Position numbers and translations under genes: made by a program. Of a DNA stretch of 64,000 bases, positions 17,043 to 56,326 are shown piece after piece; positions within the stretch are counted from its first letter, which is position 1, and every line of letters begins with the position of its first letter. The notes beneath the pieces were generated by a model. The model saw nothing but the letters and a program-made list of their open reading frames with translations, had not been told where the DNA came from and searched no databases. The DNA comes from a bacterium (GTDB lineage Bacteria; Joyebacterota; Joyebacteria; Joyebacterales; Joyebacteraceae): NCBI GenBank assembly GCA_025782395.1, contig JALGZD010000219.1:205560-269559 (forward strand). Direction: 5' to 3'.

Positions 17043-17337
17043 TCCCAGCATCCCTCTCCCATTTCCAGACGAGCCCGTCCTCGTCGACAGTCCAATTTTC
17101 CAGCGCATACAGGATACCACCCCAGGTACATTCCATCAAGATCAAAATGACTGAGACACGGTAACGCACAGATGCCTCGTCGCGCACGCAGCAGGGCGAG
17201 GCGCGATGTGCGCATGCGTTACCTGAGGCCGGCCTCTTTCCGCTCGCCGTCCCGCGTTCGCCGTCGTAGAATGGCGGCCACAGACCCTCACACGAACACG
17301 CGCGGCCCAGCCGCAGCAGTATCCCACAGGAGGCATC

Positions 17338-28273: not shown

Positions 28274-31200
28274 TGAATAGCAAAGCAACCACAGACGCGC
28301 GCGCTCGACGCCTCGCCTCCGGACTCGACGGAGGTCTCGCCCACACCTATCTCATCGAGGCCGGCGCCGGAACCGGCAAAACGAGCGTTCTCGTGGACCG
28401 ATTTCTTGCACTCGTTCGGACCGGTGTCAGAATCACCAGGATCGTCGCGATCACGTTCACAGAGAAAGCGGCCGGAGAGCTACGCATCAGGCTGCGCTCC
28501 GGGCTGGAAGAGGCGCTCGTGGCTGGATGCGACGAGTCGGAAGCTGGCGCCACGAGGTCCCGGCACGCGGAGGGCGATGAGAATGCCGGCGCACTCACCG
28601 CGGAAGAGCGAGAGCGGTTCCGGACCGCGCTCCACGAGATCGACCGCGCCCAGGTCTCGACCATCCACGGGTTCTGCACAGGCCTTCTGAAGGAACGTCC
28701 CGTTGAGGCGGCTGTGGACCCCAACTTCGGCGTCGCCGATGCTCTCAGACAGACAGTGCTACTGAATGAGGCATGGGAGGAATGGCTCCAGAAGGAACTG
28801 ACCGGGAGACCGCCGGATTCTGTAGGCCAAAGCCAGGCGCTCGGCCTGACGCTCTCCGGCATCAGAGATCTGGCGTTCATGCTCATTGAGAACAGAGACG
28901 TCATTGAGCTCGTGCCTGATCCAGTCACACCTCCGGACACAGGCGCCTTCCTCAGTGAACTGGCGACTACGGCTCGGGCGTTTCTCAATCTCTCGGAACG
29001 ACACTGCAAAGACCCGGACGACAAGGGTGCAGTCGCGATCCGCGCGTTCGCCCGGCAGGTCGATGAGCTCGGAATGCTGCCGGAGGAAGCAAGGGCTGTA
29101 CACGCTCTCAAGCACGTGAAGCTCTTCCCGAAAAGTGGCAAGGGAAGGAAGGACAACTGGGAAGATGACGTTCTTGCCACCCTTCGAGCGCGCTCGGCCG
29201 ACCTCGCAGAGAAGCGGGACGAGCTGCAAGAGGACATCTCTCACAACACCGCCGTCGAACTACTCGACTGGCTTGCGGGATTCATTGCCGCCTACGAGGC
29301 GAAGAAGAGAAGCTCCGGCGTCCTCGACTTCCAGGATCTTCTGACAAGAGCCCGCGATCTCATCAGAGACAACACCGAGGTCCGTAGTCATTTCAAGGAA
29401 GCGTTCGACAGAATCCTCGTGGATGAGTTTCAGGACACCGACCCGCTCCAGTGTGAGATCGCCTTCTTTCTCGCGGAGAAGAAGGGAACTCCCGCGCGTG
29501 ACTGGAGGAAAATCGAACTCGAGCCTGGGAAACTCTTCATAGTCGGCGACCCAAAGCAGTCGATCTATCGCTTCCGCCGAGCCGACATCGAGACGTACGA
29601 ACAGGCCAAGGAGATCGTGAGAGCTGCCGGCGAGGTTCTCGAGCTCGCGGAGAACTTCCGAACGCGACCGGCCATCATCGAGGGCGTCAACACCGTCTTC
29701 TCGGACATCATGAAGCCGCCCGACGATGGGCGCCGCTATCAGCCGGACTACGCTCCTCTTGTCCCGCACCGCCCGCCCGACACGGCAGGCGCAGGCGTTG
29801 TTGTACTCGGACCTGCCTCACCAGACGGCGAGAAACCGCTCGCGGACGAAATACGCGCTCTGGAAGCTGCGGCTGTGGCAGCATTCATCGAGCAGCTGCC
29901 TGCGAGCGGCGAGCTCGTCTATAGCAGGGACACTGAACAATGGCGCGCCCCCGAACTCAGGGACATTGCCATTCTCTTCAGGACCATGACCGCCCTCGAT
30001 GCATACGAGGATGCACTCAGTAACTACGGGATCGAGTACCGCATCCTCGGTGGGAAGAAGTTCTACATACGCCGCGAGGTTCAGGAACTGGCCACGGTGC
30101 TGACGGCTATCGAGGACCCGCACAATGCCGCGGCCATTGTCGGCGCTCTCAGAACTCCGTTCTTCGGAGTCTCCGACGATGCAATCGTCCTGCAGAAGTG
30201 GCAGACCGGGGCGTTGAGCTACCTCTCGCCTTCCGCGGACGGAGTCGCCGAGGTCGAGGAGGCCTTCGCGCTCTTGAGAGAACTGAATGCCGTCAGGAAC
30301 GCCGACGGCATCGTGCGTGTGATACTGAGGCTCTTTGATCAGACGTCGGCGCTCGAGCTGTTCCTCCTGAAGCCGTCGGGGGAGCAACGCCACGCGAACC
30401 TGCTCAAGGTCGTAGAACTGGCGACGTCGATGGAACGAGATGAGCTCATGTCGTTCGGCGGGTTCGTGAGGTGGCTTCGCGACATCTCGCAGCTCACACC
30501 CGAGGAGGCAGAGTCCCCCCTCTCTGAGGAGGGCGACAACTTCGTGCGTCTTCTGACGGTTCACAAGGCCAAGGGACTCGAGTTCCCGATCACGGTGCTG
30601 GCGGATCTCGGGCGATTCAAGGACAGGAGCGAAAAGGTCGTCATTGACCGCGGGACGGGGTGCATCGATCTTGGTATCGGAAGGAAGGATGACAAGTTCT
30701 GCACGAGAGGGTTTGCGGCTGCATCGAAGCTCGAGAAGCTCCGGCGTGAGGCTGAGCTCATACGGCTTCTCTACGTTGGAGCCACGCGGGCGCGCGATCT
30801 CCTGGTCGTTCCCTGGTTCACGAAGGAGGGGGACGACTCCGGCCTCCTGACGAAGCTCTCAGCTCTGAGAGAGATGGCCGGCGCGCCGGTTGGAGCCATA
30901 TCCGCCATCGCCGGTGACCCTGCCGTCGTAAGCTACGATATCGCTGAACTCGATCTCACGCGTGTGAGGCGCTCTGAAGTCCGGCTTGACCTTGACGCCG
31001 CAAAGGGCATCAACTACGAAAAGACCGAGGCGTTTCTGGAAAAGGAGCGCTGGCGGGATTGGCTTGCAGGCTACGCCGGGAAGCACCATTTCCCGCTTCG
31101 CACAGTCACACCGTCTTCGCTCGAGTACGTCAGTGGCGCCGCGCTCCTGCCCGTCGCTCCGGCACTCGCAGACACCCCAGACAGGTTCTCAGGGCGGGCG

Positions 31201-31731
31201 TTCGGCACATTGGTGCACCGTGTCCTCGAGCGGATCGATCTCCGAAGCCCGGTTGACGTGGCAGTGGAGGCTCGCGCTCTTGCAATGATGGAAGGGATCG
31301 ACAAGGACGAGGCAGAAGCTGCCGCGGCTCTCGTCGAACACGCGATGGGATCGGATGTGATGATCCGCGCCGGGAACGCCGATCTCGTCCTGAAGGAGGT
31401 GCCGCTCTGCCTCCCCCACGGTGACGGGTTCCTGGAAGGCTCGCTCGATCTAGTCTTCGAGGAAGACGGAGAGCTCATCGTCGTCGACTACAAGACCAAC
31501 CTCCTCGGCCCCGGCGGGCTCGACGCGCTTGAGAAGCACTATATGCCTCAGGCTCTCACCTATGGGCTCGCTCTCACGAAGATCCTCCGCAGGCCCGTCA
31601 AGGAAGTCATTCTGCTGTTCGTGCGAGGCGGCGAGAATGGCGAACCGGCGGAGCGATCGATCCCCATGGGAATCGACGCGATCTCCGCCGCCCGCAAGCT
31701 CGATACCAGACTGGGGAAGCTCCTTCCCTAG
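28270..31731 (+). CDS. addA: AddA-type ATP-dependent helicase/nuclease subunit A (UvrD-family helicase plus C-terminal RecB nuclease).
   Basis: Walker A AGAGTGKT, UvrD motifs (ITFTEKAAGELRIRL, TIHGFC, LVDEFQDTD) and C-terminal nuclease motif DLVFEEDGELIVVDYKT. Confidence 0.8.
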   Translation: MMNSKATTDARARRLASGLDGGLAHTYLIEAGAGTGKTSVLVDRFLALVRTGVRITRIVAITFTEKAAGELRIRLRSGLEEALVAGCDESEAGATRSRHAEGDENAGALTAEERERFRTALHEIDRAQVSTIHGFCTGLLKERPVEAAVDPNFGVADALRQTVLLNEAWEEWLQKELTGRPPDSVGQSQALGLTLSGIRDLAFMLIENRDVIELVPDPVTPPDTGAFLSELATTARAFLNLSERHCKDPDDKGAVAIRAFARQVDELGMLPEEARAVHALKHVKLFPKSGKGRKDNWEDDVLATLRARSADLAEKRDELQEDISHNTAVELLDWLAGFIAAYEAKKRSSGVLDFQDLLTRARDLIRDNTEVRSHFKEAFDRILVDEFQDTDPLQCEIAFFLAEKKGTPARDWRKIELEPGKLFIVGDPKQSIYRFRRADIETYEQAKEIVRAAGEVLELAENFRTRPAIIEGVNTVFSDIMKPPDDGRRYQPDYAPLVPHRPPDTAGAGVVVLGPASPDGEKPLADEIRALEAAAVAAFIEQLPASGELVYSRDTEQWRAPELRDIAILFRTMTALDAYEDALSNYGIEYRILGGKKFYIRREVQELATVLTAIEDPHNAAAIVGALRTPFFGVSDDAIVLQKWQTGALSYLSPSADGVAEVEEAFALLRELNAVRNADGIVRVILRLFDQTSALELFLLKPSGEQRHANLLKVVELATSMERDELMSFGGFVRWLRDISQLTPEEAESPLSEEGDNFVRLLTVHKAKGLEFPITVLADLGRFKDRSEKVVIDRGTGCIDLGIGRKDDKFCTRGFAAASKLEKLRREAELIRLLYVGATRARDLLVVPWFTKEGDDSGLLTKLSALREMAGAPVGAISAIAGDPAVVSYDIAELDLTRVRRSEVRLDLDAAKGINYEKTEAFLEKERWRDWLAGYAGKHHFPLRTVTPSSLEYVSGAALLPVAPALADTPDRFSGRAFGTLVHRVLERIDLRSPVDVAVEARALAMMEGIDKDEAEAAAALVEHAMGSDVMIRAGNADLVLKEVPLCLPHGDGFLEGSLDLVFEEDGELIVVDYKTNLLGPGGLDALEKHYMPQALTYGLALTKILRRPVKEVILLFVRGGENGEPAERSIPMGIDAISAARKLDTRLGKLLP

Positions 31732-31777: not shown

Positions 31778-34606
31778 CTACTTCAAAAGCAGCATCCTCT
31801 TCACCAGCACACCGTCACCCGTCTCGAGCCTGTAGAAGTAGACTCCGGAGGCGACGCGCTCACCGTCGTCAGCGCATCCATCCCAAGGTGTGGTGTGGCG
31901 TCCCGCCGACTTCATCGCCGCCCGCTCAAGCGTCCGGACGACTCGACCGCTGAGATCGTGCACGATAAGTGTCACATTCATCGGGTCGGGAAGCTCGTAC
32001 TGGATGAGTGTCACGGGATTGAACGGGTTCGGGTAGTTCCCGCGAAGTACCGTCTCTCGCGGCAACACGCCATCATCCGGCATCCCCGTCCACGTGCCTT
32101 CGATCACGTGGAGCATCTGGTCGACGGCCACGCCGACGGCCCGCTCCGTGATGCCTGATGGCCACAGGATCTCGAGCGTGTCGACGGTTGCCGTCGCCCC
32201 GAGGCCGAATTCAACTGGAAGCGAGCTCTGACTCATGTAGCCTGAACCGCCGGAGACCTCACGGATCTGTGAGATCCCTCCCGCGACCACCCTCACGCGC
32301 GCGCCTATCGCCGATGCGTTCGAGATGGTCCCTGTCAGCTCCACGTGCAGCCAATGATTGAAACCACCCGTGCTGTTCTCAAGCAACCTGTTCGCGGACC
32401 CATTCACAATGTGGAGGTCGTCGGTCCCGTCCCCGTTGAAGTCGCCGAACGCGAGACCCCACGTCGTGCGGCTGCAGCTCGCCGGCTTGATCGATGCATC
32501 GAAGAAGCTCCATTCTGGAGCACCCTCATTGCGGTACAGAATATTGGTCTCCCCGTAGCGCCCGACGTACAGATCCAGATCTCCGTCGTTGTCCCAGTCC
32601 GCCCACGCCACGCCGGTCCCGAGCCCTACGCTCCCGAGCGGCGTCGCAGTGGCGTCCACGAAAACGCCGTCGTCGTTGCGGAACAAGCGATCCGCGCTGT
32701 GCAGGTTCGCGATGAAGAGATCGAGATCTCCATCGTTGTCGTAGTCTCCCCAGGCGCACCCGATGGTGCTACCGCCGTCGTTGAGGGGCGCCACCGTCAC
32801 GTCCACGAAAACGCCGTCATCATTGCGGAACAGCCTGTTGGCACTTCCTCTATTGGCGACGTAGAGATCCGGATCGCCGTCGTTGTCGTAGTCCCCCCAG
32901 GCGGCTCCCTGCGAGTAGGCTGAAACGGCTGAAATCGCCCCGCCGACGGTCGTGAACCCCCACGATGGAGGACCTTCGTTTCTGAGAAGAACATTGACCC
33001 CGTTGTTTGCAAGAAAGAGGTCGACGTACCCGTCGAGATCGTAATCCGCCCACGCTACCGTCCAGCAGTCGCCGGCATCGGCGAGTGCGTCTATCGACGC
33101 GTCAATGAAAACGCCGCCTCCTTCATTCCTGAAGAGCTTGTTCGTCCCGTAGGAGGTCCCCACATAGAGATCCAGGTCCCCATCGTTGTCGTAGTCGGCC
33201 CAGGCGACACCGGTGTTGTACCCGGTATCACCAAGTGGAGGGGTTGTCGCATCAACAAAAACCCCGCCATCATTTCGATAGAGACTGCTCGCGGACTCGG
33301 TATCGGACACATAGAGATCGAGATCTCCGTCACCGTCGTAGTCGCCCCAGGCAACTCCTCCGTCCCTTGTGTTGGTTTCGAGAACCGGGTTCATAACCCG
33401 GATCCACGGCGCCTCTTCGCGTGAGATGACGGGGACTACCGTCACGGTCTCGTCACCCTGGAAGCGCATGCAGTTGTTGCTGCCGGCGCAGACCGGCCAG
33501 TCGGCGTTCGCCTGCTCGTAAGCGGCGCACACGGTCCAACCTTGGTCCATGTAGCTGAACAGAGAGGTCTGCCAATTGAGGGAGTAGCTCCAGCACGTGG
33601 CGCACTGCGGTTCCGACATGCCACAGTACCCGACGACGGAGGCGCCTTCTGAAGCGCCCTTGCGGAATTCGTTCGCGAAGGTGCCGTCTCCGACCGAGCA
33701 CATCCCGGCGCAGCTTCCGATGAACGCGAACGGCATCCGGCCATAGTTCTCGATCCACGCTTCAATGTTGTTCGCTGTCGTGTAGTGGATCGACACACCT
33801 CCATCACATCCACTTCCGAAGTAGTCGCTGCCACCGTGTGCAAGTTCATAGAAGAGCGTGACATCGTTGTCCTGGACGTGGCTTCTGACTTCAGCCTCCG
33901 TCGGCCAGATGATCTCCTCTGTGGGGTAGCCCATAGCCTCGAACCAGATCCTGGCGTTGCCTGACCAACTATCCCAGGCCCCGCTGCACGGCCCCTCTTC
34001 CCAAGGCCCTGTCAGCGAAAAACCGGTGGACGGTGGCGGTATCCCCGGACCTACGATGGCGCCTGTGATCGCATCGACCACCGACACCGTGCGGACGCCG
34101 CGGACGCTCACGCTGTGAACGACCCAGCAGGGGTTGGTGGGTGTCGGGTCGAGCGGGAAGACGTCCGATTCCGGAGAGATGACGAAGAGGTCGGTGAAGA
34201 GGATCTCACCCTCGATTACGGCCTCCGCATCGAGATCGGAAAGAGAGAGAGCCGGGAGCCTCGAGGGGAGATCATCGCGCCAGTGGCTCTTGCGGGCCAG
34301 AAGCTCCCCAGTGTGGCGGTCGAATTGGTAGACCACGTAGTCCTTCTCGACGATGGCGCCGTCGAGCATCCGCTGGTGAAAAAGAACAGCCAGATCTTCG
34401 CTGATGGCGATCCCATCGAAATGCCGGCCACCATCCCCGAACCGCTCCAGCAGGGACACCTGTGAAGCAACCGTCCATGGTTCGGCTCCCGTGCACGCCG
34501 GCCCAAGAGCCAGGACCGCCACAACAACAAGAGTGAAGACCAAAAGCGGCGATGTCGCCCGCTGGGGGAACCGATGACCGTCTGATCTCATTTGAGCGTT
34601 CTCCAT
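31778..34606 (-). CDS. Secreted multidomain protein: clan-CD (C25/gingipain-like) peptidase domain plus FG-GAP/VCBS repeats plus ASPIC/UnbV-like domain plus T9SS CTD.
   Basis: His/Cys dyad context (ELAHGGSDYF ... MPFAFIGSCAG) aligns to the gingipain NYTGHGSETAW ... FDVACVNGDF. At least six DYD.DGDLDLYV FG-GAP repeats; ASPIC-like region (IGARVRV...GSGY.SQ). C-terminal YPNPFNPVT...GVYFYRLE...RMLLLK. Confidence 0.6.
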   Translation of the reverse strand: MENAQMRSDGHRFPQRATSPLLVFTLVVVAVLALGPACTGAEPWTVASQVSLLERFGDGGRHFDGIAISEDLAVLFHQRMLDGAIVEKDYVVYQFDRHTGELLARKSHWRDDLPSRLPALSLSDLDAEAVIEGEILFTDLFVISPESDVFPLDPTPTNPCWVVHSVSVRGVRTVSVVDAITGAIVGPGIPPPSTGFSLTGPWEEGPCSGAWDSWSGNARIWFEAMGYPTEEIIWPTEAEVRSHVQDNDVTLFYELAHGGSDYFGSGCDGGVSIHYTTANNIEAWIENYGRMPFAFIGSCAGMCSVGDGTFANEFRKGASEGASVVGYCGMSEPQCATCWSYSLNWQTSLFSYMDQGWTVCAAYEQANADWPVCAGSNNCMRFQGDETVTVVPVISREEAPWIRVMNPVLETNTRDGGVAWGDYDGDGDLDLYVSDTESASSLYRNDGGVFVDATTPPLGDTGYNTGVAWADYDNDGDLDLYVGTSYGTNKLFRNEGGGVFIDASIDALADAGDCWTVAWADYDLDGYVDLFLANNGVNVLLRNEGPPSWGFTTVGGAISAVSAYSQGAAWGDYDNDGDPDLYVANRGSANRLFRNDDGVFVDVTVAPLNDGGSTIGCAWGDYDNDGDLDLFIANLHSADRLFRNDDGVFVDATATPLGSVGLGTGVAWADWDNDGDLDLYVGRYGETNILYRNEGAPEWSFFDASIKPASCSRTTWGLAFGDFNGDGTDDLHIVNGSANRLLENSTGGFNHWLHVELTGTISNASAIGARVRVVAGGISQIREVSGGSGYMSQSSLPVEFGLGATATVDTLEILWPSGITERAVGVAVDQMLHVIEGTWTGMPDDGVLPRETVLRGNYPNPFNPVTLIQYELPDPMNVTLIVHDLSGRVVRTLERAAMKSAGRHTTPWDGCADDGERVASGVYFYRLETGDGVLVKRMLLLK

Positions 34607-34614
34607 CAGGTGTT

Positions 34615-36210
34615 CTATTGTATGAACACGACCTTCTGCTGGTCTGTCCCCGTCTCTGTCACAAGCCTCGCGAAGTAGACGCCCGAAGACACGGACTCGC
34701 CGGCGAGATCTCTCCCCTTCCAGATGATCTCACCCTCACCCGTCGAGCTTGCGGTCGCGCTCATCCGGTCGATCAGCCGTCCCGAAACGGAGTAGATCTC
34801 TACAGTGATCGCACCTGAGACCGGAGCGATGAAGCTGATCGTCGTGCTTCCGCAGAACGGGTTGGGTGAGACCGAGCGGATCCCCGCCACGCGCGTTTCG
34901 GCATCGGGAATGCCGGTCCCGGTTGGCCAGAGTACCGCATCGAGTTCGGTCAGTCCGCGCGCACCGACCACGACATCGTAGAAGGTCTGCGTGTCATACC
35001 CGGCAGAGGAGAACTCAACCGTGTATGTTCCCTCAACCAGCATTCGCCAGTAGCGACCGTAGGTTGCACCGGTCAGTCTCGGCATGATCTCATCAGACGA
35101 GTTCTCAATGACCTCGACCTCGGCCACGAGCGGATCCCCGGTCGTGCCGTCGGTCACATGACCCGTGAGGCCCGGTCCGTAGACACGATCGAGCAGATAG
35201 TACGAGCCCAGCGACACTCTCTCACAGTACTCATCAACATCGGCCCCGGGCGGGATGCACATCTGGCTCATGATCTCCATCGTCAGGCCGATCGTGCCCA
35301 GCACTCCGTACTGCCAGTTCCGGGCCTTGCCGGCCGTCGCGTATCCATAGATGGCGGTGTAAGAGGTGTCGTCCAGCTTCGTTGTCTTTCCCGCCAGACC
35401 AAGCGCGATGCTGTAAACGACGTCGTAGTCAGGACAGAACCCGATCGTCGGCCAGTACCACGGGTAGTAGATGCAGTCCCCCATCGAGATCAGCGGGCTG
35501 TGATAGTTGAGCGCGAAGACAGGCTTCTCGGCTATGCACAGATCCCGCACGACCTGAGACTCGTTCTCGGAGAAGGGAGCAGTTCCTCGATAGTAGGGCG
35601 ACGTCCACTCTCCCGACCCGCCTTCGGCCCAATTGAAGTCGTAGTTGTAGTTTGGATCGACTCCGTCCAGGTCCAGTTCGAAGGTACCGTTCCCATTGTT
35701 GTCGTGGATGTTCTTTCGGTACGTCGTGTCCAGCCCCGATGTGACCACCCAGTGCCCATCCGGATTCAGGAGTGGAATGAACCAGATCTCGATGTCATCG
35801 ACCCACTGCGTGATCGAATCGACCACGCCGTAGTTGCTCGTGAGTTCATCGATCATCCACATGCAGACCTCAAGCCCCACCACTTCCTCTGCATGGTGCA
35901 GCCCATCGTAGAGCACGACAGGCTCATCCTCATCGATGTCCACATTATCGGAGATCTTGAGCCCCCAGATGGCCTGACCGTCCGTGGTGGAGTAGCCGAG
36001 TGTCTCGAGCCTTGTGATCTCCGGATAGGCCGCTGCCACTGCTGCAAGCTCAGCGCCTACCTCAGCATGGGTGTGGTAGCGCTCGTGCAACGCGAAAGCG
36101 TCTTGAGCGACACCGGCGACAACAAGGCACAGAACGGCCGAGATGACCAACGCCCTCCGCGCCACGATCGAACGGGTCTTGATGCCCGCTATCGTACTAT
36201 ACCGGTTCAT
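34615..36210 (-). CDS. M14-family zinc carboxypeptidase with a T9SS CTD.
   Basis: YHTHAEV...HHAEE (HxxE zinc ligands), N.DGH, carboxypeptidase-A-like fold motifs, followed by a Pro-rich/Ig-like domain and SPNPFCGST...GVYFARL...KVVFIQ. Confidence 0.7.
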   Translation of the reverse strand: MNRYSTIAGIKTRSIVARRALVISAVLCLVVAGVAQDAFALHERYHTHAEVGAELAAVAAAYPEITRLETLGYSTTDGQAIWGLKISDNVDIDEDEPVVLYDGLHHAEEVVGLEVCMWMIDELTSNYGVVDSITQWVDDIEIWFIPLLNPDGHWVVTSGLDTTYRKNIHDNNGNGTFELDLDGVDPNYNYDFNWAEGGSGEWTSPYYRGTAPFSENESQVVRDLCIAEKPVFALNYHSPLISMGDCIYYPWYWPTIGFCPDYDVVYSIALGLAGKTTKLDDTSYTAIYGYATAGKARNWQYGVLGTIGLTMEIMSQMCIPPGADVDEYCERVSLGSYYLLDRVYGPGLTGHVTDGTTGDPLVAEVEVIENSSDEIMPRLTGATYGRYWRMLVEGTYTVEFSSAGYDTQTFYDVVVGARGLTELDAVLWPTGTGIPDAETRVAGIRSVSPNPFCGSTTISFIAPVSGAITVEIYSVSGRLIDRMSATASSTGEGEIIWKGRDLAGESVSSGVYFARLVTETGTDQQKVVFIQ

Positions 36211-36230
36211 CCGTTCCTCCGTCGTCGGTG

Positions 36231-39200
36231 CTATTTGAGAAGCACCATCTTGGCTGAGCTCTCCTCGCCGAGCGCCGAGAACCTCGCGAAATAGACGCCG
36301 CTCGCAACCTTGTCGCCGGCCGAGTTCGTTCCATCCCACACGGTGTTGTGGTAACCGGCGTCGACCTCGCCCTCGAAAAGCATGCTCACAAGGCGCCCGG
36401 TCACGTCAAACACCTCAAGTTTGACGTTGGCCCTCTCGGGCACGCCGTAGTTTATCGTCGTGACGGGATTGAACGGGTTCGGCTGGTTGCCGGCCAGAAT
36501 CACAGCCCTCGGGACGATCGCTTCATCGGGAACGTCCGTAGAATCGTGTCCGTCCGGCAGGTCGGTTGTGAACTTGATGGCGCGCCCGCCCGCAAGCGTC
36601 GCTGCCGCGTCGTCGTATATGTTTGCATACGTGTAGAGTACGCCATCAGTCTGGGGATGGTTCTCAACCCCGACTGTGGCGTAGTTGGCGTTTGTGTCCG
36701 TGTTCGAGATCGTGTGGTACTGGAAGAGGATCTCACCATCACCGGTCTCCGTCGTGTAGACAGCCGGATCGAAGAGGATGATCTCGAAGGTCTCATTCGC
36801 GTACGGCTCGTACGCTGTCGGCACTCTGCTCCACTCGATGACGAACCTGCCGTCTCCCATGTTTCTATGCAGAACCTTGCCTCCTGCGGACGGATCCAGA
36901 TCATCCCAGAATCCGGCTATCATCGCGTCCGGTCCAGGAGCGCCAGGGATGAACCAGTTGCGGAATTCGTGATGGAACGGAGGAGTATCACCCATCCCGA
37001 TCCACCCGTTCGAGCAGACGCCTATCTCCGTGTAGTCATCGCCGTAGTAGGTGAATGTGAACGGGAGACCCACGGTCATCGTCTGGTCGTCGGCGATTCC
37101 CAGGTCAGTACCACTACCACCGTAACTTGGGTCGATCTCGACCCACGAGTACGTCGGGGCCTCATCGTACGCCGTGTCCGTGTCATCGTAGGCGTAGTAG
37201 CCGTAGTCATCCGGACCGATCGGGTCGTCGCTCGACGGGATTCCCACAGTCAACGGGAAGAGGATGAACTGCGAAAGGCCATTGTCTCCCGCCAGTTCGA
37301 GGATCATCGTGAACTCGTGTCCCACGGCCACGTCCGACTCGGCCTCCACCTGGAACGGATTCCCCGAATTCGAGGCCCGCTCGCCTGCCGCGACGGTCGC
37401 ATACGTTCCATCGCCGTCAAGAACAACCAGGCCAGACGTTGGCCCGACGAGGGTTCCCGTCACCGATGTCGCGTCCATCTCTCCACCGTTCGAAAGCGTC
37501 ACGACCAGTGTCGCGGTCTCGCCAGGGTCCAGAATGCCATCGCCACCGATCGCGAGCGAGTAGTACTCCAGACCAGGTGCGCCCACGACGATGCGGGCGA
37601 AGCTGACAGAGGTGGCCCGGCTCCCCTCGGTCACCGTGAATTCGAAGCCTATCTCCGTCCCGTTCGGACATCCGTCATCTACTGTGAAGACGAACGGATT
37701 TGAGCCGGATGCGACTGCGCCCGCGACCATCGTGCCGTAGCCGGCGGTCTGACCTGGCGTGATCGTTACCCATTCGCTGTTGGCTCTCGGCGGTCCGCTG
37801 TCGAAGCCTGCAGTCACGCCCGTCGCGGTCAGGAGACCGTAGTTCTTGAGGTCGACGTTGAGCTCGATCGTCTCACCGGGATTCACAACGCCGTCGCCAT
37901 TTCCGCTTGAGGCGCCCGAGCCATCGTCATCGATGCCCTGGCTGTTCCAGCCTACGAACTCATCTTCCTGGTCGACCGACACGTCACCCACGTAGGGCTT
38001 CATGTTGGTGGCCCAGACGGTGACATAGGCATCACCCTGTGTCGTCGCGCCAAGCGGCACGTCTACATTGTACCCGCCGCTGAGGGTCCGGATCTCGTAT
38101 ACCTCGTCGCCCTTCCAGATGATGACCTCGGCGCCGGGAACCGGACTGCCGTTCCCGTCCTCGACATGAACCGTGAGCATGTTCTGTCCGAACGGCACGC
38201 TTGCATCATGCGTGGCAACAATCGTCCCGGGCCGCTCAGTGCGGAGGACGAGTTCAGGATCGCCGATCAGATTGAAGACATTGAAGTAGAAGTCGACATT
38301 CTGCCCATCCTCGTCTGACGAGGCTGGGTCCACGTACTCGGGGAAGTTCAGATAGATCTCCATCTTGCCCCGCAAGAGAGACTGTCCGAAGTGCTCGATC
38401 CCCTCATTGAGGATGCCCTCGTAGATGCCTGTGTCTATGGCGTTGTTCCACTTGGTATGCGTCCAGAACTCGCTCGGCCCGATCATGGCCGGACCGCCCT
38501 TGAGAGCGAATGGGCTCCCGGCACGAATCCACGCCTCTCCGAAGCACGGGTCGGTCCCGCTGTCGAAGTTGCCCGTTCCACATACAATACTGGTCATGAC
38601 CGGCAGCATGCGGTTGTTCGAAAGCTGGTTGATGTGGTCCGTGTAGAACTGCGGGTAGTACCAGCCCGGCGCCCCACCCCAACCTCGGTAGTTCACAAAC
38701 GCAACTCCGGCGTTGATCGAATTCTGGATGTCCTCGGTCTGCGTTCTTGATCCGCTCTTTGCGTACGTCCAGAACACAGTGTCGACCTGGGTGTAGGCGT
38801 TCTCCATGAGCATCTCGCGCACGCGGAGCTTCGTCGTCCGGGGGGTAGTCGGTTGCGGGCTGCCACAGCAGTTCGCTGCAACCATAAGCGCATGTTCGTA
38901 CCAGTCGTCGGTCGGAGCATCGCAGTCGCGCTCGTAGACCTGAGGCTTCAGCGAAGCCACGACGGCGCCGGTCGGCGTGTCTACTGCCATCCTGCCGACC
39001 ATGACGTCGGGCAGGTAATCACTGCCCTCCAGCTCAGAGTACGGATGGTCCGTGACGTCGCCGGCGTGGAACCATGCGGGCATGTCTCCGTTGCTACCAC
39101 TGTCCCTATCGCCGATAAGACAGACGTAGTCCGGCGGATTGTCCCACGTGTCGTACGCGTTCTGGATGAAGTCCTTGATGTCCTGTGCCGAAGGACTCAC

Positions 39201-50369: not shown

Positions 50370-51624
50370 TCAACGCCCTGCGGACCAGTACACCTCCAGC
50401 ACAGGAGGGTTCGACTGCTGGTCCACCGTCGTGATCGCGTGGCCGCACACAGCGGGAAGCAGGATGATCACGCCGTGGTTCTCGGTTTCGTCGCTCACCC
50501 ATCGCTGCACTACATGCGTGAGGTCAAGCGACACGGACATTGTCTCTGTGGCGTCACTGACGTACGTCGCACACGCGTGCTCGTTGAAGTCTCCGCCTGC
50601 CGTCTCCCAGTCGGTCGACCAACCGACGCTCTCAGCATCCCACGCCGTCGTCACGGGGTACGCTTCGATCACAACTGGCGGTAGAGACCCGACCTCGGGT
50701 AACGTGACCTCAGCGCGCATCCGGAGCCGCGCGAAGTCGATCGTGGCCCCATTCAGCACCTCAGGGATCTCGAACGAGACGAGGTAGCGTGGGATCACCG
50801 GGCCACACCAACACGGGCATCAGCCTGCAGCCGCCGCTGGAACCTCCGAGTGTCCCATCACCCCATCCCCCGGCAACACCGGCAACGCCGGTTCCGTTGT
50901 TGGTGATGGCATCAGCTATCCCTGCAACGCTCGTCCCGTGGTCACCCACAACCGAATAGACGTCACTGCTGTTGGCGTGGAAATCCCATCCATAGGGGTC
51001 ATCCATATAGCCGTTGCCATCATCATCGACATCATCCGAACCTCCGCCCTGCTCTGTCTCGGGCCAGTTCACCCAAAGAGCACGCTCAAGATCCTCGTGA
51101 TCGGAGAGGATGCCATCATCGATGACAGCGATGACAACTGCCGTATCCCCAGCGGAGATCTCCCATGCACTGCAGGCGTCCATATGGGATGGCTTCATGT
51201 CCCACTGACGACTGCTGTAGTACGTGTCATTTGGATTGGACGCCCACTTGGCTACAGGCACGAGTTCGGCGAGTTCCACAAGCGGGCTTCCGCAGTATGT
51301 GTCAAGAACATCGAGAGGATCCAGTGTGTCCGGATACGCAAGCACCGTGAGTCCTGAGCCGAACGTCACAAGCTCACTTGCAGTGACTGAGGAATTGAGG
51401 CTGTCGATCGAAGAGGCCGCTGCGTCCGGCTCGAACCGCACGGACATCCGGCCCGGCACGATCTCATAGAGCTGGCCGCGCGAAATCTGAAACAGAGTAT
51501 CTCCTGATGAGGTGAACCCCCTTCCGCAACACGTCTCTTCACTCCTCGACTCACTCGTAGCGCATAGAAGCACCGATATCGCGAGTATGATCAGGCATGC
51601 GCCGATCCTCACTCTCTGCCTCAT
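50370..51624 (-). pseudogene. Disrupted S8 subtilisin-like serine peptidase: the Asp and His motifs are present, the frame is lost after the His region and the Ser motif is absent.
   Basis: The 51624..50761 ORF has a signal peptide, AVIDDGI...HEDL (Asp) and GDHGTSVAGIA (His), but ends about 60 aa after His. The 50798..50370 ORF continues in another frame and lacks GTSMA. This is either a genuine pseudogene or an assembly frameshift. Confidence 0.45.
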
Positions 51625-51667
51625 TGCACCCTTCCCAAATCGCCGTGGCAGCCGCCAGCAAGACAGT

Positions 51668-53419
51668 CTATTCGAACACGATCGTCTTCCCTGCGGCCAC
51701 CGAGCTGCCGCACTTGGCTCTCACGAGATACACACCCCGCGTGACGGACCGACCTTCGTCGGTCAGACCGTCCCAGCGCACTTCCAATGCCCCGCCACCG
51801 TCGACATGGGTTTCAGAAAGATGTCTCACAAGTCTGCCTGCGGGGTCGAAGACATCCACAATCGTCGACCCATGCGCACCGCGAACGTGGCACAGCAGAC
51901 CGCCGGAGGCAAAGGGCGAGATTACAGCCAGCGACAGCTGCGCAGAACTGGTCGGGCTCTCGTTCGGCACCGACGTTCCAATCTCCTCGGTCGTGCCGAC
52001 GCGGAGGCGGTCAAGGAAGATGCCGCGAGCGGGAGTCCCCCCGGTCACTCCTCTCACCTGCTCGATGCAGAGTCTCATGTGCGATCCAGAGAGCACGGCA
52101 CCGACGTATTGCGGATCAAGCGGAAACGCGACCGTGTGCCAACCCTCGTCGAACATCGGCAGCGAGAGGGCCTCGCAGAAACTCGACCGAGAGCCCAAGC
52201 ACTCGACAGTCTCATCAGCAGATACTCTCATGGTTACGTAGGCCGGAGCATCACTCGGCAAGTCGAAGTACCCTGTGAGTTCAAGGACCATGGCGTCGTA
52301 ATCTGTGATGCCGGCCACGCCGAACGCGGGTGTTACGATCGACGCCCACTGCCCATCTGCAGTGAAGCCGGTTTCCGTATCAACCGCGGCGATGACCCAG
52401 TTCCCTACGATCCCCCGGGGGGGCGGCGCGACGAGCGAGTCGGAAGGAACCCTCCACCATGTGACCCCCGCCTGTTCACTCCCCCCATTCGAAGCCGTCC
52501 ATCCAATGTTGTCAGGGTTGAGCGAGTCCTCGAAATCAGCAGCGAAGACGAGTTGACCCTCGTTGCGGACTTCGACTTCGTCAATGTACCAGCCTCCGTC
52601 CGTGAACGCGGCATGCGTATTGCAGTGGCTCCATCGCTCAGACGAGTAGAACGCATCCGATTCAAGTCGCCATCTAATGCGAACCTGATGCCCTGCCCAG
52701 CTACCTATGTCAATCACAGGATGAGATAGCTCGGGGTCCCAGTAGTCCCAGTCAATGAGGACTCCTGGTGTTGATCCGAACGGGATATTCGAAATGCAGT
52801 AGATTGTCTCGAAGGTGTCCGGGGGGGCACCATCGATGACGGCGAGCTCGACATAGCCGTAATCGTACCCCGATTCAAGCCCGACCCTCTGGCGGAAGCT
52901 GAGCTCAAGCGAGTCAGCTGAAAAGGAGGTCAAGTCCACGTCTCGCCAGAGCAGCTGGCACCACTGGTCACCGTAGCCAGGCGTAGGCCAGCACGCATCA
53001 CTGCGCCCACACCAGAATGACCTGTCTGGAGGCTGCCCGTCCTGGAAGGCGCGGAACGTGTCGACGTGCCACTGTGGCTCTAGTGGAGGATGCTCGCTGA
53101 AGTCGAAGGTGAACCAGCCTGTCAACTCATCCCCCGGCTCACCAAGGTCTTCTGTTCCGGCGTTGCATCCGCCGAAGTTCTCGAAATCAGCGTCGAAGAT
53201 CCATAGCGTGTCGGCATCGCGGTCCGCAGTCGGATCAGACCACGTCCAAGGAGCAGAGTCAGCGATCGGGTCGCTCCCTCCTGCGGTTGAGATGAGAGGC
53301 ACGAGGAAGACCAGCAGAAGGACAGCCGCAATCGAGCCGCCAGCGTGTGTAGGGCTCGCGCACATCACAATCACCTCCTCTGGATGCTGCCAGATGAGTC
53401 CCACCCACTCAGGAGACAT
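51668..53419 (-). CDS. Secreted protein, paralog of the 13834..15372 protein, with a T9SS-CTD-like C-terminus.
   Basis: Shares TLWIFDADFE, WCG..D.CW..GYGDQWCQLLWRD and YDYGYVE motifs with the 13834 protein. The C-terminal ~85 aa Ig-like tail (GVYLVRAKCG...KTIVFE) is present. Confidence 0.55.
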   Translation of the reverse strand: MSPEWVGLIWQHPEEVIVMCASPTHAGGSIAAVLLLVFLVPLISTAGGSDPIADSAPWTWSDPTADRDADTLWIFDADFENFGGCNAGTEDLGEPGDELTGWFTFDFSEHPPLEPQWHVDTFRAFQDGQPPDRSFWCGRSDACWPTPGYGDQWCQLLWRDVDLTSFSADSLELSFRQRVGLESGYDYGYVELAVIDGAPPDTFETIYCISNIPFGSTPGVLIDWDYWDPELSHPVIDIGSWAGHQVRIRWRLESDAFYSSERWSHCNTHAAFTDGGWYIDEVEVRNEGQLVFAADFEDSLNPDNIGWTASNGGSEQAGVTWWRVPSDSLVAPPPRGIVGNWVIAAVDTETGFTADGQWASIVTPAFGVAGITDYDAMVLELTGYFDLPSDAPAYVTMRVSADETVECLGSRSSFCEALSLPMFDEGWHTVAFPLDPQYVGAVLSGSHMRLCIEQVRGVTGGTPARGIFLDRLRVGTTEEIGTSVPNESPTSSAQLSLAVISPFASGGLLCHVRGAHGSTIVDVFDPAGRLVRHLSETHVDGGGALEVRWDGLTDEGRSVTRGVYLVRAKCGSSVAAGKTIVFE

Positions 53420-53605
53420 TTGAGCCTCCCTTAAATCCTACGATATCCCCGGTCACTATTCAACATCCATCTCCACAACCTCGCTTCTTCGGAGATGCCG
53501 CTCTGTGCCTACCCGGTGCCTCAGCTACACCGATACTCTGCGCTCCCAAGACCGCCCACGGCATGCTATGATGGAGTTGTGGATTCGTCCTTGTCGAGGG
53601 TAACC

Positions 53606-54877
53606 ATGCGCGTTTCTTGCACCATTCCAGTTCGCATCGGTCTGGCACTTGCCTTGGTCGTTCTCTCCGCCGCCGGGGCGCCCGCCGAGACAATCCACGT
53701 CGACCAGGCCGGCGGCGGAGACTACCTGACCATCCAGGAGGGCATCGACGCGGCAACGTATGGGGACACAGTCCTAGTGTTGCCGGGTGTTTACTCCGAG
53801 CGTTTGGTGATGGGCGCGGACAAGGACGGGATCACACTGACGTCGAGGGGTGGAGCCGATTCCACATCGCTCTCGATGGGGGGCAGCGCCGGACTTCCTC
53901 TTCTCCACATAGAGGATGTCGGACCTGCAACGATTGTCTCGGGACTGACCTTCGAGGACAACCGGGCTCAGCGCCCGCAGCTCGGTGGTGGAGGAATCCT
54001 GGCGGAGGGATCCGGCGTCACCATAGAGGACTGCGTCATCCAGGACTGCTACGCGTCGTACCACGGAGGGGGACTGGCGATCCACGATCCCGCCGGGACC
54101 ACGATCCGAAGGAATGTCATCCAGCGGAACTCGGCCGGGGACGGAGGTGGAATGTGCCTTTGGGATTCGGGCTCAGCCACCGTGACGGACAACGTCTTCA
54201 GGGAGAACGCTGTCTCGGGCTGGTATACGGTGGGCGGAGGCGGCGCCCACATCTCCGGGGCAGCGGTCACGCTCACAGGCAATGCCTTTGAAGACAATGT
54301 CTGTCTCTTTGCTGGCAATGGGGGCGGAGCTCTACTGGCCGGGTCCGGAGCCGTGATCACCGCGGAATCGAACATCTTCGTCGGCAATGAGGGTAGTGGT
54401 GCAGTGATGTACCTGCGAAACGTCACGCTCCACGCGAGCGGCAACGTCATCTCGGGCAACGCACCCTCCGGCGCATGCATCAACCTCTCTGAGTTCCTCA
54501 GCTCCCCTGAGAACGACGTCACGTTTGCCGACAACATCATCCACGGCAATGAAGGTCCAATCCTGCGCGTCTGGAAGAACGTCCTTCCCAGCTTCGTGGG
54601 CAACAGCATCGACCCGAATGGTTACCTCGTGCTCAACGTCAGCGAGGGCGCTCATGCCGGTACCCTCGACGCATCCGGCAACTGGTGGGGAACAACCGAC
54701 CCGACAGAAATCGCCAGCCTCATCCACGACTGTGTCGACGACCCGGCAATTGACTCGTGCGTCGACTTCTCCGACTGGTGCACCGACCCCTCCTGCGACG
54801 GCCAGGTGACATCAGTCGAAGATCCGCCCGAGGCAGCCCCTGTGAGCTGGGGACGGATCAAGAGCCTGTACAGGTAG
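53606..54877 (+). CDS. Secreted parallel beta-helix repeat protein, copy 1 of a tandem pair sharing a near-identical C-terminal module.
   Basis: Signal peptide MRVSCTIPVRIGLALALVVLSAAGAPA; IHVDQAGGGDYLTIQEGIDAATYGDTVLV...; beta-helix rungs; C-terminal NWWGTTDP..DFSDWCTDPSCDGQVTSVEDPPEAAPVSWGRIKSLYR. Confidence 0.6.
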   Translation: MRVSCTIPVRIGLALALVVLSAAGAPAETIHVDQAGGGDYLTIQEGIDAATYGDTVLVLPGVYSERLVMGADKDGITLTSRGGADSTSLSMGGSAGLPLLHIEDVGPATIVSGLTFEDNRAQRPQLGGGGILAEGSGVTIEDCVIQDCYASYHGGGLAIHDPAGTTIRRNVIQRNSAGDGGGMCLWDSGSATVTDNVFRENAVSGWYTVGGGGAHISGAAVTLTGNAFEDNVCLFAGNGGGALLAGSGAVITAESNIFVGNEGSGAVMYLRNVTLHASGNVISGNAPSGACINLSEFLSSPENDVTFADNIIHGNEGPILRVWKNVLPSFVGNSIDPNGYLVLNVSEGAHAGTLDASGNWWGTTDPTEIASLIHDCVDDPAIDSCVDFSDWCTDPSCDGQVTSVEDPPEAAPVSWGRIKSLYR

Positions 54878-54878
54878 G
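54762..54878. repeat. Copy 1 of a ~117-bp duplicated segment encoding the shared C-terminal module of the two beta-helix paralogs; the second copy is at 56159-56276.
   Basis: gtcgacttctccgactggtgcaccgacccctcctgcgacggccaggtgacatc[a/g]gtcgaagatccgcccgaggca... is about 93% identical between the copies. The element aggcatctcacatccatga recurs at 54976-54994 and 56274-56292. Confidence 0.8.
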
Positions 54879-54990
54879 TCTGGCGCCAAGGCGTCTGTCG
54901 TCTGAGTGGAATCCGATGCGAGGAACCCGTGCTATGAGAGATACGGCGCCACACGTCGGCCCTCACTTGCTTGGCAGGCATCTCACATCC

Positions 54991-56274
54991 ATGAGCAGCC
55001 GTCGTTGTTGGTCCGCCCGGACGCTCCTTGCAGCTGCCCTGCTCGTGGCGGCCGCTGCCACCGCTTGTGCTCACATGATCCACGTCGACCTAGCTGGCGG
55101 CGGCGACTACCTCACCATCCAGGAGGGTATCGACGCCGCTTCGTACGGCGACACTGTCCTTGTGGCGCCGGGCACGTACTACGAGCATCTCTATATGGGA
55201 CCCACCGCAGACGGGGTGACTCTGCTGAGTGAGGCCGGCCCTGAGTCGACCGTCATCGACAACGAGGGCGTGTCCCACTACTCGGTTATCCACTGCGAGA
55301 ACGTGGGGGGCGACACACGGATCGAAGGGTTTGCGATCACGGGGGGAGACTCCTACTACTGGGGCGGCGGCATCAGAGCCGACAACGCCGATGTGCGGAT
55401 AGTCTCGTGCACGATCACAGGCTGCCGTGCCGCTCGGATGGAGGGAGGTGGCATCGGAAGCTCCGACTCTTCCATCGAGGTGAGCGGCTGCTGGATTGAG
55501 GGCAACCGCGGTGGTGACGGGGGCGGGATCGGCGTGTGGGGTGGTGAGGCAATCATCAAGGAGAACACGATCATCGGGAACGTGGCCGCCTCCTTTACCG
55601 CCAACCAGTCAGGTGGTGGCATCTACGCCTCCTGCAGTCATGCCGAGATCACCGACAATCTCATTGAGGGCAACTCCGCCCTCCACGGGGGGGGCATTGA
55701 GGTCTGGGGAGGCGACGACACATCCATCATCGGCAACAGGATCATGGGCAACTACGCAGGCTCCGTTGGTGGAGGAATCGCTCTCTACAACAGCGCCTGC
55801 TTCGCTAGCGGCAACACCGTTGCCGGTAACCACGCTAACCAGTTCGGCAGTGGAGCAGTGGACGTGCGAGACCCTAGTAGCTCGCCGCCACGAGCGCCAG
55901 CGCAGTTCATCAATAACGTCTTCTTCAACAATACGAGCGACGGGGACGAATCCGCCATCCGGATCCGCCAGGGCGGCCCCACCCCGATCTTCAACAACAA
56001 CTTCTTCGCGGACGATACGACCTACGAGGTTCTCGTAACCTCAACCCCATCCGCCGACACCATCGACTTCACAGGCAACTGGTGGGGAACCGATGATCCA
56101 GCCGAGATCGCCGCGAAGATCTACGACTGCAACGATGACCCCGGACTCCTCTGGTGCATCGACTTCTCCGACTGGTGCACCGACCCCTCCTGCGACGGCC
56201 AGGTGACATCGGTCGAAGATCCGCCCGAGGCATCCCCTGTAAGTTGGGGACGAATCAAGAGTCTGTACAGGTAG
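54991..56274 (+). CDS. Secreted parallel beta-helix repeat protein, copy 2 of the tandem pair.
   Basis: Signal peptide MSSRRCWSARTLLAAALLVAAAATACA; IHVDLAGGGDYLTIQEGIDAASYGDTVLV...; C-terminus NWWGTDDP..DFSDWCTDPSCDGQVTSVEDPPEASPVSWGRIKSLYR. Confidence 0.6.
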   Translation: MSSRRCWSARTLLAAALLVAAAATACAHMIHVDLAGGGDYLTIQEGIDAASYGDTVLVAPGTYYEHLYMGPTADGVTLLSEAGPESTVIDNEGVSHYSVIHCENVGGDTRIEGFAITGGDSYYWGGGIRADNADVRIVSCTITGCRAARMEGGGIGSSDSSIEVSGCWIEGNRGGDGGGIGVWGGEAIIKENTIIGNVAASFTANQSGGGIYASCSHAEITDNLIEGNSALHGGGIEVWGGDDTSIIGNRIMGNYAGSVGGGIALYNSACFASGNTVAGNHANQFGSGAVDVRDPSSSPPRAPAQFINNVFFNNTSDGDESAIRIRQGGPTPIFNNNFFADDTTYEVLVTSTPSADTIDFTGNWWGTDDPAEIAAKIYDCNDDPGLLWCIDFSDWCTDPSCDGQVTSVEDPPEASPVSWGRIKSLYR

Positions 56275-56276
56275 GC
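56159..56276. repeat. Copy 2 of the ~117-bp duplicated 3' segment.
   Basis: See the 54762-54878 entry. Confidence 0.8.
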
Positions 56277-56326
56277 ATCTCACATCCATGACCGGCCTCG
56301 ATGCTCCGCACGATGCTCCCCGTGAG

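Follow-up and report, generated by a model that had tools for sequence, protein, structure and literature searches.

A candidate C-terminal sorting or anchoring tag on a tandem pair of beta-helix proteins, one of them chimeric, from a Joyebacteraceae bacterium

The tandem pair and the chimeric origin of copy 1

The 64,000-nucleotide stretch analysed here (hereafter the window; contig JALGZD010000219.1 of assembly GCA_025782395.1, family Joyebacteraceae; G+C content 60.8%) carries two adjacent genes for beta-helix proteins, copy 1 and copy 2, which share a nearly identical 3' end and terminate in the same ten residues. This terminal decapeptide, referred to below as the tag, most likely represents a previously undescribed signal for sorting or anchoring, a function read from its sequence and distribution. 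Both proteins begin with predicted Sec-type signal peptides (cleavage after ...AAGAPA and before ETIHVD in copy 1; after ...AATACA and before HMIHVD in copy 2, as read from the sequence). Both match the Pfam families Beta_helix (PF13229) and NosD (PF05048) above the gathering score, with 66 bits to Beta_helix for copy 1 and 43-44 bits to NosD for both copies. The AlphaFold model of copy 2, built on a 33-sequence alignment, was a confident beta-helix with a mean predicted local distance difference test score (pLDDT) of 87.8, and a Foldseek search with the beta-helix body returned polysaccharide lyases at TM-scores of 0.4-0.5 and 10-14% identity. The fold of the body and its Asn ladder resemble those of NosD/polysaccharide-lyase type proteins (Beta_helix, NosD; RbmB, PL6 lyases), and the N-terminal motif TIQ.GID.A..GDT..V.PG.Y is common to both copies and these proteins. 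The bodies are ordinary, and no catalytic residues were identified in them. A NosD function proper (TIGR04247, N2O reductase maturation) was rejected, with scores of 34-40 bits against a cut-off of 300 bits; no nos genes were seen among the window open reading frames (ORFs) scanned.

A full-length search returned about 37 proteins of about 420 amino acids (aa) that were alike in architecture and tail. Among them were copy 2 itself (P0001, identical over 93% of the length of copy 2), copy 1 (P0027, 100% identity to the copy 1 body) and two syntenic orthologues of copy 2, P0002 (89% identity) and P0008 (67%). The family is present in several copies per genome, often in tandem. On one contig of a related metagenome-assembled genome (MAG; GCA_030600655.1, contig L001) the gene order was M16 peptidases, a single beta-helix gene (P0002) and the aromatic lyase gene. 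An indel of 4.6 kb distinguishes the two loci: positions 50502-55077 of the window correspond to 170 bp in L001 (5917-6087). Besides copy 1 and the spacer, the part of the window without a counterpart in L001 contained a FlgD_ig protein and an S8-like ORF of 286 aa, which matched Peptidase_S8 only in part and may be a gene fragment. On another contig of this MAG (L002) lay a tandem pair, P0004-spacer-P0003, with which window positions 54677-56278 were colinear at 86% identity.

The protein identity between copy 1 and copy 2 was 42% by BLASTP, so the two are old paralogues. An earlier note on this DNA had given about 60% overall, which was somewhat high, and about 93% over the last 117 bp, which was right; we found 94%. 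In the codon alignment, nucleotide identity rose from 0.47 in the middle of the genes to 0.94 in the last 39 codons, and an N-terminal stretch reached 0.82. The N-terminal stretch (IHVD..GGGDYLTIQEGIDAA..GDTVLV; 53693-53790 versus 55078-55175, 82% identical as DNA) showed a weak rise in identical codons (18/28, P=0.045) and may represent a second, older exchange or merely strong constraint.

At identical degenerate residues, identical codons were used in 30 of 35 cases in the tail versus 47 of 101 in the middle (P=1.8e-6). The linker that precedes the tag varies freely between orthologues (EDPPEASPV in copy 2, EEPEGTTQA in P0008), and therefore selection at the protein level cannot explain the identity of the two tails. 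The closest relative of the copy 1 body, P0143 (84% protein identity over 140 aa), has a different tail, GDASCSGHVTDVPEAAQRQVSWGRLKSLYR. The contig of P0143 (L125, which holds an orthologue fragment) matched the copy 1 DNA at about 90% up to about aa 388 and at 60-69% thereafter, and the DNA downstream of the P0143 gene was unrelated to the spacer between copy 1 and copy 2. By contrast, the last 120 nucleotides (nt) of copy 1 were 0.90-0.96 identical to every gene of the copy 2 clade, and the 113-bp spacer aligned with the spacer between the paired genes of L002. Because of this codon excess, the body match to L125 with a different tail and downstream region, and the copy-2-clade tail and spacer, copy 1 is a chimera of a copy-1-type body and a copy-2-type tail. 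The breakpoint is near 54762-54775, inside the conserved DFSDWC segment.

The excess of identity at synonymous sites, together with the phylogenetic incongruence of the tract with the rest of the gene, is that of a gene conversion tract. Recombination or gene conversion at a unit boundary, which the earlier note had suggested, is thus supported by both of these and by the homologous gene-spacer-gene unit in L002. The body of copy 1 would derive from a divergent branch of the family. Homologous recombination or gene conversion in the conserved cap region would have brought in its last 39 codons, its stop codon and the 113-bp spacer from a gene-spacer-gene unit of the copy 2 type. As in the concerted evolution of tandem gene families, a short, near-identical tract, identical at synonymous sites too, lies inside diverged paralogues and reaches into the intergenic spacer. 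Nothing distinguishes the event from known cases, and the start of the tract in the most conserved coding segment is expected for homology-dependent exchange; the conversion is textbook concerted evolution.

Anatomy of the tail and spread of the decapeptide

In the model of copy 2, pLDDT was above 90 up to about residue 400 and fell to 34-39 for residues 402-427, within which AlphaFold placed a short helix of low confidence over WGRIKSLY (residues 419-426). The cysteines C380 and C389 were both present in 28 sequences, both absent in 5 and never mixed in the alignment columns, and C396 and C401 were invariant in the family alignment. This co-variation and invariance therefore suggest two disulfides in the cap and an extracytoplasmic location. 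Column identity in the linker was 0.24-0.55; columns 409-417 were variable and columns 418-427 conserved. An exhaustive search with the 71-aa tail gave 312 matches in two classes. The first consisted of giant proteins that matched only the NWWGT..DP.EI...IYD..DD part, with up to 14 matches each, and the second of about 60 representatives of 350-430 aa that matched through to a terminal [ST]W[GSA]x[IVL]K..[YF][RK]. A word-indexed search with the tail alone gave no match, which reflects the sensitivity limit of the index and not absence, because the exhaustive and full-length searches both found the family. Since the giant proteins matched only the cap, columns 409-417 were variable and columns 418-427 conserved, the module divides into cap, linker and tag: a structured beta-helix cap with the NWWG motif, a short helix and the two predicted disulfides, a disordered acidic/Pro-rich linker, and the terminal decapeptide. 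The earlier note had suggested that the whole Cys-rich terminal module may be a distinct tag; the last 10 aa are indeed a general C-terminal tag, while the Cys-rich part belongs to the beta-helix cap. The giant proteins (P0121-P0141 and similar; 2000-5000 aa) are presumably strings of beta-helix modules, and many of them end in another conserved terminus, ...Y[RQK]G.[LV].[LVI][YR][QRK].

The consensus of the tag is [ST]WGx[IVL]K[AS][LM][YF]R-COOH, and its W and K were invariant in the beta-helix family. The search for other proteins with the module, which the earlier note had proposed, found the whole tail in about 60 cluster representatives (clustered at 50%) of the family. The tag also occurs apart from the cap. 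Distant beta-helix homologues of copy 2 without the NWWG cap ended in the tag (P0056, from Latescibacterota, P0069, P0071, P0074, P0075, P0090, P0104 and P0120), and other beta-helix homologues of copy 2 ended in C-terminal domains (CTDs) of the type IX secretion system (T9SS) or in different C-termini.

Species-representative genomes were searched with a degenerate DNA pattern of the tag plus stop codon, which recovered both genes of the window. The pattern is biased to GC-rich genomes and to Y over F, because it requires AAG and TAY. It was found at more than 119 genome loci versus about 26 expected by our own estimate. Among the matches listed, 132 ORFs ended in the tag, with the extended consensus C-P-[VT]-P-[VT]-[ER]-x-[ST]-[ST]-W-G-x-[IVL]-K-[AS]-[LMI]-Y-R, and 52% of them had a Cys 9-11 residues before the W. 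The decapeptide is thus not private to the two genes of the window, the case that the earlier note had set against its own proposal. A signal-peptide-like hydrophobic N-terminus was present in 93 of the 110 complete tagged ORFs among these matches, as judged by a hydropathy heuristic. Where the motif occurred outside the selection by pattern, it lay within 5 aa of a stop codon in 19 of 22 instances.

The passengers of the tag were diverse (Beta_helix, NHL, PD40, LTD, CBM20, X25, MAM, CHRD, Cleaved_Adhesin, PPC and pectate lyase), and most had no Pfam match; no T9SS CTD family was among the Pfam families of the tagged ORFs in the matches listed. NCBIfam assigned several passengers to families whose definition includes a different sorting signal: choice-of-anchor J and W proteins, M36 peptidases dependent on myxosortase or rhombosortase, the PEP-CTERM protein ScyF, and ExeM. 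The contigs of the tagged loci, again among the matches listed, were mostly labelled Candidatus Eisenbacteria; other labels were Latescibacterota, Krumholzibacteriia, Fibrobacteraceae-labelled MAGs, Zixibacteria, Effluviviaceae and Gemmatimonadota, and a few short contigs with odd labels are probably mis-binned. Tagged genes often stood in tandem arrays, with four in L035 and seven in L078. The arrays of L035 (63-3405), L078, L031 and L064 consisted of four to seven small paralogues of 190-340 aa, and each of the four paralogues in L035 had a signal peptide and the tag. An LTD-domain gene that adjoins the tandem pair of L002 (2996-3583, minus strand) was also tag-ended (...SPVDQLTWSSIKALYK), so that tagged genes of different families cluster.

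Features of the locus and the unit boundary

The features of the locus are given in Table 1. As described in the earlier note, a 19-bp element occurred twice, at 54976 and 56273, with no further occurrence on either strand; the ATG of copy 2 lies within the first, and the last two bases of the copy 2 stop codon fall within the second. The degraded start reported behind the second element was confirmed as about 30 nt of further similarity, with a local alignment score of 25 that none of 2000 shuffles reached; the part beyond ATGA was weak when taken alone (78 of 2000 shuffles reached its score). The 19-mer joins the last bases of the inter-unit spacer to the start codon of the unit that follows. 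Its equivalent in L002 was caggcatatcaagttcATGACC; an orthologous remnant was present in L001 (gcatctcgcatccACGACCGG) and none was found in L122. The remnant lacked the first 98 nt of the spacer, and the 'a-type' upstream element of L001 and L002 was absent from the window. The second 19-mer, directly after the copy 2 stop, would be what is left of a downstream unit that was lost or converted. The proposal that the lyase gene truncates the array was borne out in part: a boundary remnant follows copy 2 and is kept in L001, but in a more distant relative (P0008) a single gene without a remnant lies convergent with the lyase gene at a gap of 9 bp.

Table 1. Features of the tandem beta-helix locus, in positions of the window
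Feature	Position	Strand	Basis or remark
Copy 1, secreted right-handed beta-helix protein, 423 aa (ATG 53606, stop 54877)	53606..54877	+	ORF; Pfam Beta_helix/NosD
Copy 1 signal peptide MRVSCTIPVRIGLALALVVLSAAGAPA	53606..53686	+	Read from sequence; cleavage site predicted by the A-x-A rule
Copy 1 beta-helix C-terminal cap, GNWWGT..DP.EI..IHDC.DDP...C.DFSDWC...C	54677..54796	+	Query part that also matches repeated units of giant proteins; equivalent region of copy 2 modelled with high pLDDT
Recombination/conversion tract: last 117 bp of copy 1, stop codon and 113-bp inter-unit spacer	54762..54990	+	Copy-2-clade origin
Copy 1 terminal tag SWGRIKSLYR	54845..54874	+	
19-mer AGGCATCTCACATCCATGA, first occurrence: end of spacer and ATGA of copy 2 start	54976..54994	+	
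Copy 2, secreted beta-helix protein, 427 aa (ATG 54991, stop 56274)	54991..56274	+	Convergent to lyase gene
Copy 2 cap, aa 362-401, with pairs C380-C389 and C396-C401	56074..56193	+	pLDDT ~90
Copy 2 linker, aa 402-417, DGQVTSVEDPPEASPV, predicted disordered	56194..56241	+	pLDDT 34-39
Copy 2 terminal tag SWGRIKSLYR	56242..56271	+	
19-mer, second occurrence, overlapping copy 2 stop codon	56273..56291	+	
Unit-boundary remnant: last 13 nt of spacer and ~30 nt of degraded 'b'-type gene start	56275..56320	+	Local alignments; orthologous remnant in L001
Aromatic amino-acid lyase gene, conserved convergent neighbour	56327..57979	-	Pfam Lyase_aromatic E=5e-181; synteny in L001, L122-L124

Downstream of the lyase gene, genes for a Na/sulfate-type symporter, a LarC-like Ni-insertion protein and a PP-loop ATPase (QueC- or LarE-like) occupy 57927-62350 on the minus strand, with conserved synteny; L001 adds an AIRC (LarB-like) gene and L122 (8962-10206) adds LarA. 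These genes look like a lactate-racemase cofactor gene set. Elsewhere in the window, an AddB/AddA-like helicase-nuclease pair (1137 aa and 1153 aa) is encoded at 24860-31731 on the plus strand.

The decapeptide as a candidate sorting or anchoring signal

Like the tag, T9SS CTDs (Por_Secre_tail, PF18962/TIGR04183; FlgD_ig-like, PF13860) form the very end of Sec-exported proteins whose passenger domains are of many kinds. The two have lineages in common and are mutually exclusive endings on homologous passengers. However, a T9SS CTD is a beta-sandwich of 70-100 aa, whereas the tag is an element of about 10-18 aa behind a disordered linker. The earlier note had described the tail as lacking a transmembrane (TM) helix and as unlike the T9SS CTDs of the window, and both descriptions held: no TM segment was present, and Pfam and NCBIfam searches with both proteins and with the isolated tails gave no match. 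T9SS type A CTD hidden Markov models (HMMs) did not match either protein or the isolated tails at E<=1-10, while other proteins of the window did match. Nor was a folded C-terminal beta-sandwich predicted, residues 402-427 having the low pLDDT and the short helix given above. The third beta-helix protein of the window (15474-17120, minus strand), a distant homologue of copy 2, carries a T9SS CTD of the FlgD_ig type, as the earlier note had stated. It is one of six T9SS-CTD proteins, at 6477-9200 (+), 13834-15372 (-), 15474-17120 (-), 31778-34606 (-), 34615-36339 (-) and 51668-53419 (-), whose kinds include a metallophosphoesterase, a MAM-domain protein, a beta-helix protein, an FG-GAP/ASPIC protein, an M14 carboxypeptidase and one of no assigned kind. 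A further protein of 1264 aa (36231-40028, minus strand) consists of Propeptide_C25, Peptidase_C25 and a FlgD_ig/Por_Secre_tail CTD, an architecture known both from gingipain-like T9SS cargo and from the PorU signal peptidase. With this C25 peptidase, the window holds seven T9SS-CTD proteins versus two tag-bearing genes.

The signals of PEP-CTERM/exosortase, MYXO-CTERM, GlyGly-CTERM/rhombosortase and LPXTG systems are, like the tag, modular, C-terminal and lineage-restricted, and they occur on 'choice-of-anchor' passengers. A P-V-E element followed by S/T residues bears a superficial likeness to the PEP motif of PEP-CTERM. However, tripartite signals have a TM helix and a trailing basic cluster, whereas the tag lacks both and ends only 9 residues after the S/T. 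No hydrophobic stretch followed the S/T of the tag, and NCBIfam gave no match. The novel part is the tag, a candidate signal that belongs to a familiar class of elements but has a form of its own; Pfam and NCBIfam release 20 contained no model for it, and full-text literature on the motif strings and on Eisenbacteria secretion and sorting yielded nothing on the tag.

On balance, the tag on this paralogous, predicted Sec-exported beta-helix pair, with its chimeric copy 1, probably serves as a sorting or anchoring signal that is read in trans. As is usual for C-terminal sorting signals, it is a short element at the extreme C-terminus of many unrelated signal-peptide-like proteins in restricted lineages, and, as in choice-of-anchor families, it replaces known sorting signals on homologous passengers. 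Its near-constant C-terminal position on unrelated ORFs, behind a disordered linker of variable length, and its interchange with known signals fit a short, tethered linear signal recognised in trans. The protein would be exported by Sec and would then fold in the oxidising periplasm; the linker would present the basic terminal peptide to an envelope component, which would retain the protein on the cell envelope or pass it to the cell surface. The tag would thereby do the job that T9SS CTD, PEP-CTERM, MYXO-CTERM or GlyGly-CTERM signals do on homologous passenger domains. More tentatively, the tag, usually after C..P[VT]E, may be the signal of an undescribed sorting or surface-attachment pathway that runs parallel to T9SS with its own machinery in Eisenbacteria, Latescibacterota, Krumholzibacteriia and neighbouring members of the Fibrobacterota-Chlorobiota-Bacteroidota (FCB) group.

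Several observations weigh against a dedicated signal. Among 576 ORFs that neighbour the tag at 119 loci, clustering revealed no recurrent partner or candidate sorting enzyme, and the largest neighbour cluster was joined through kinase/TPR/PD40 proteins. Taken as a helix, the tag had a mean hydrophobic moment of 0.55, against 0.39+/-0.18 for shuffles, 21% of which reached the observed value; taken as a strand, it had one of 0.50. With these two moments so close and the AlphaFold helix of low confidence, the secondary structure of the tag is ambiguous. The search pattern itself dictates W, G, K, Y and R in the pattern-derived set, so that the conservation of these residues rests on the homology-derived sets. 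About 15-25% of the tags had 1-12 residues beyond the motif, and therefore the tag does not depend on a free carboxylate in one fixed register. As to the locus itself, an assembly error in the repeat is conceivable, and the remnant could stem either from duplication followed by deletion or from conversion from a paralogous array.

Other readings of the tag are, in falling order of likelihood, direct envelope binding, a minimal T9SS signal and an intrinsic or regulatory role. C-terminal membrane-targeting helices are found in MinD and FtsA, and the tag could likewise be a basic, aromatic, amphipathic peptide that anchors non-specifically, by lying in the membrane interface or by binding lipopolysaccharide or peptidoglycan without any machinery. 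W, Y, K and R are typical interfacial residues, the flexible linker would suit a tether, a helix is modelled at residues 419-426, and no dedicated neighbour gene was found in the 119 loci. We nevertheless regard such an anchor as unlikely, since the (near-)invariant W, G and K and the conserved S/T before the W point to specific recognition, the hydrophobic moment was not significantly above that of shuffles, and nine residues are short for stable anchoring. That the tag is instead a minimal T9SS signal, in which K-[AS]-[LM]-Y-R mimics the last strand of the local FlgD_ig-type CTDs (...RKAVLLR, ...KMVLLK) and uses the same translocon, is suggested by this resemblance of the termini, read from the sequences, by the FCB-group labels of most labelled tag loci, by the wealth of T9SS CTD proteins in the window and related loci, by the PorU-like C25 peptidase encoded in the window, and by the use of tag and CTD as alternative endings of homologous passengers. 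It is improbable, because the Pfam and NCBIfam T9SS models do not match the tail, no beta-sandwich is predicted, and the stretch beyond the last folded residue is only about 26 residues long. Secretion by the T9SS of P. gingivalis and F. johnsoniae needs a folded CTD of about 60-100 aa.

An action within the protein or in translation, as an oligomerisation or autoinhibitory peptide, a degradation signal for periplasmic proteases or a nascent-chain termination element, is less probable still. C-terminal peptides are commonly ligands of proteases or PDZ domains, and the conserved W about nine residues before the stop has what we take to be a superficial likeness to arrest peptides. Against this, the tag is found on dozens of folds with no relation to one another, where it follows a disordered linker that differs in length; it also replaces known sorting signals in choice-of-anchor families, and short C-terminal extensions are tolerated. 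Finally, the tail might merely be a recent duplication private to two young paralogues, or a mis-assembled repeat, without wider meaning. The copies are adjacent and their nucleotide identity is high enough to mislead an assembler, yet we consider this very improbable: at 42% identity the paralogues are old, the gene-spacer-gene unit and the remnant are also present in independently assembled contigs of a related MAG, and both the representatives of the tail family and the 132 unrelated tag-ended ORFs lie outside the pair.

Predictions of the surface proteome of uncultured bacteria depend chiefly on C-terminal sorting signals, and LPXTG, PEP-CTERM, GlyGly-CTERM and the T9SS CTD each led to the discovery of dedicated envelope machinery. 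The gene-conversion result, which carries lesser weight, indicates an exchange of 3' ends within tandem families of tagged proteins, by which tag and linker stay uniform among paralogues. The tag marks a large and diverse set of predicted exported proteins in phyla without cultured members, comprising polysaccharide-lyase-like beta-helices, propellers, CBM-containing proteins, peptidases and nucleases that are now annotated as 'hypothetical'. An HMM of the tag would at once improve the annotation of these genomes and would make phylogenetic profiling for a partner possible.

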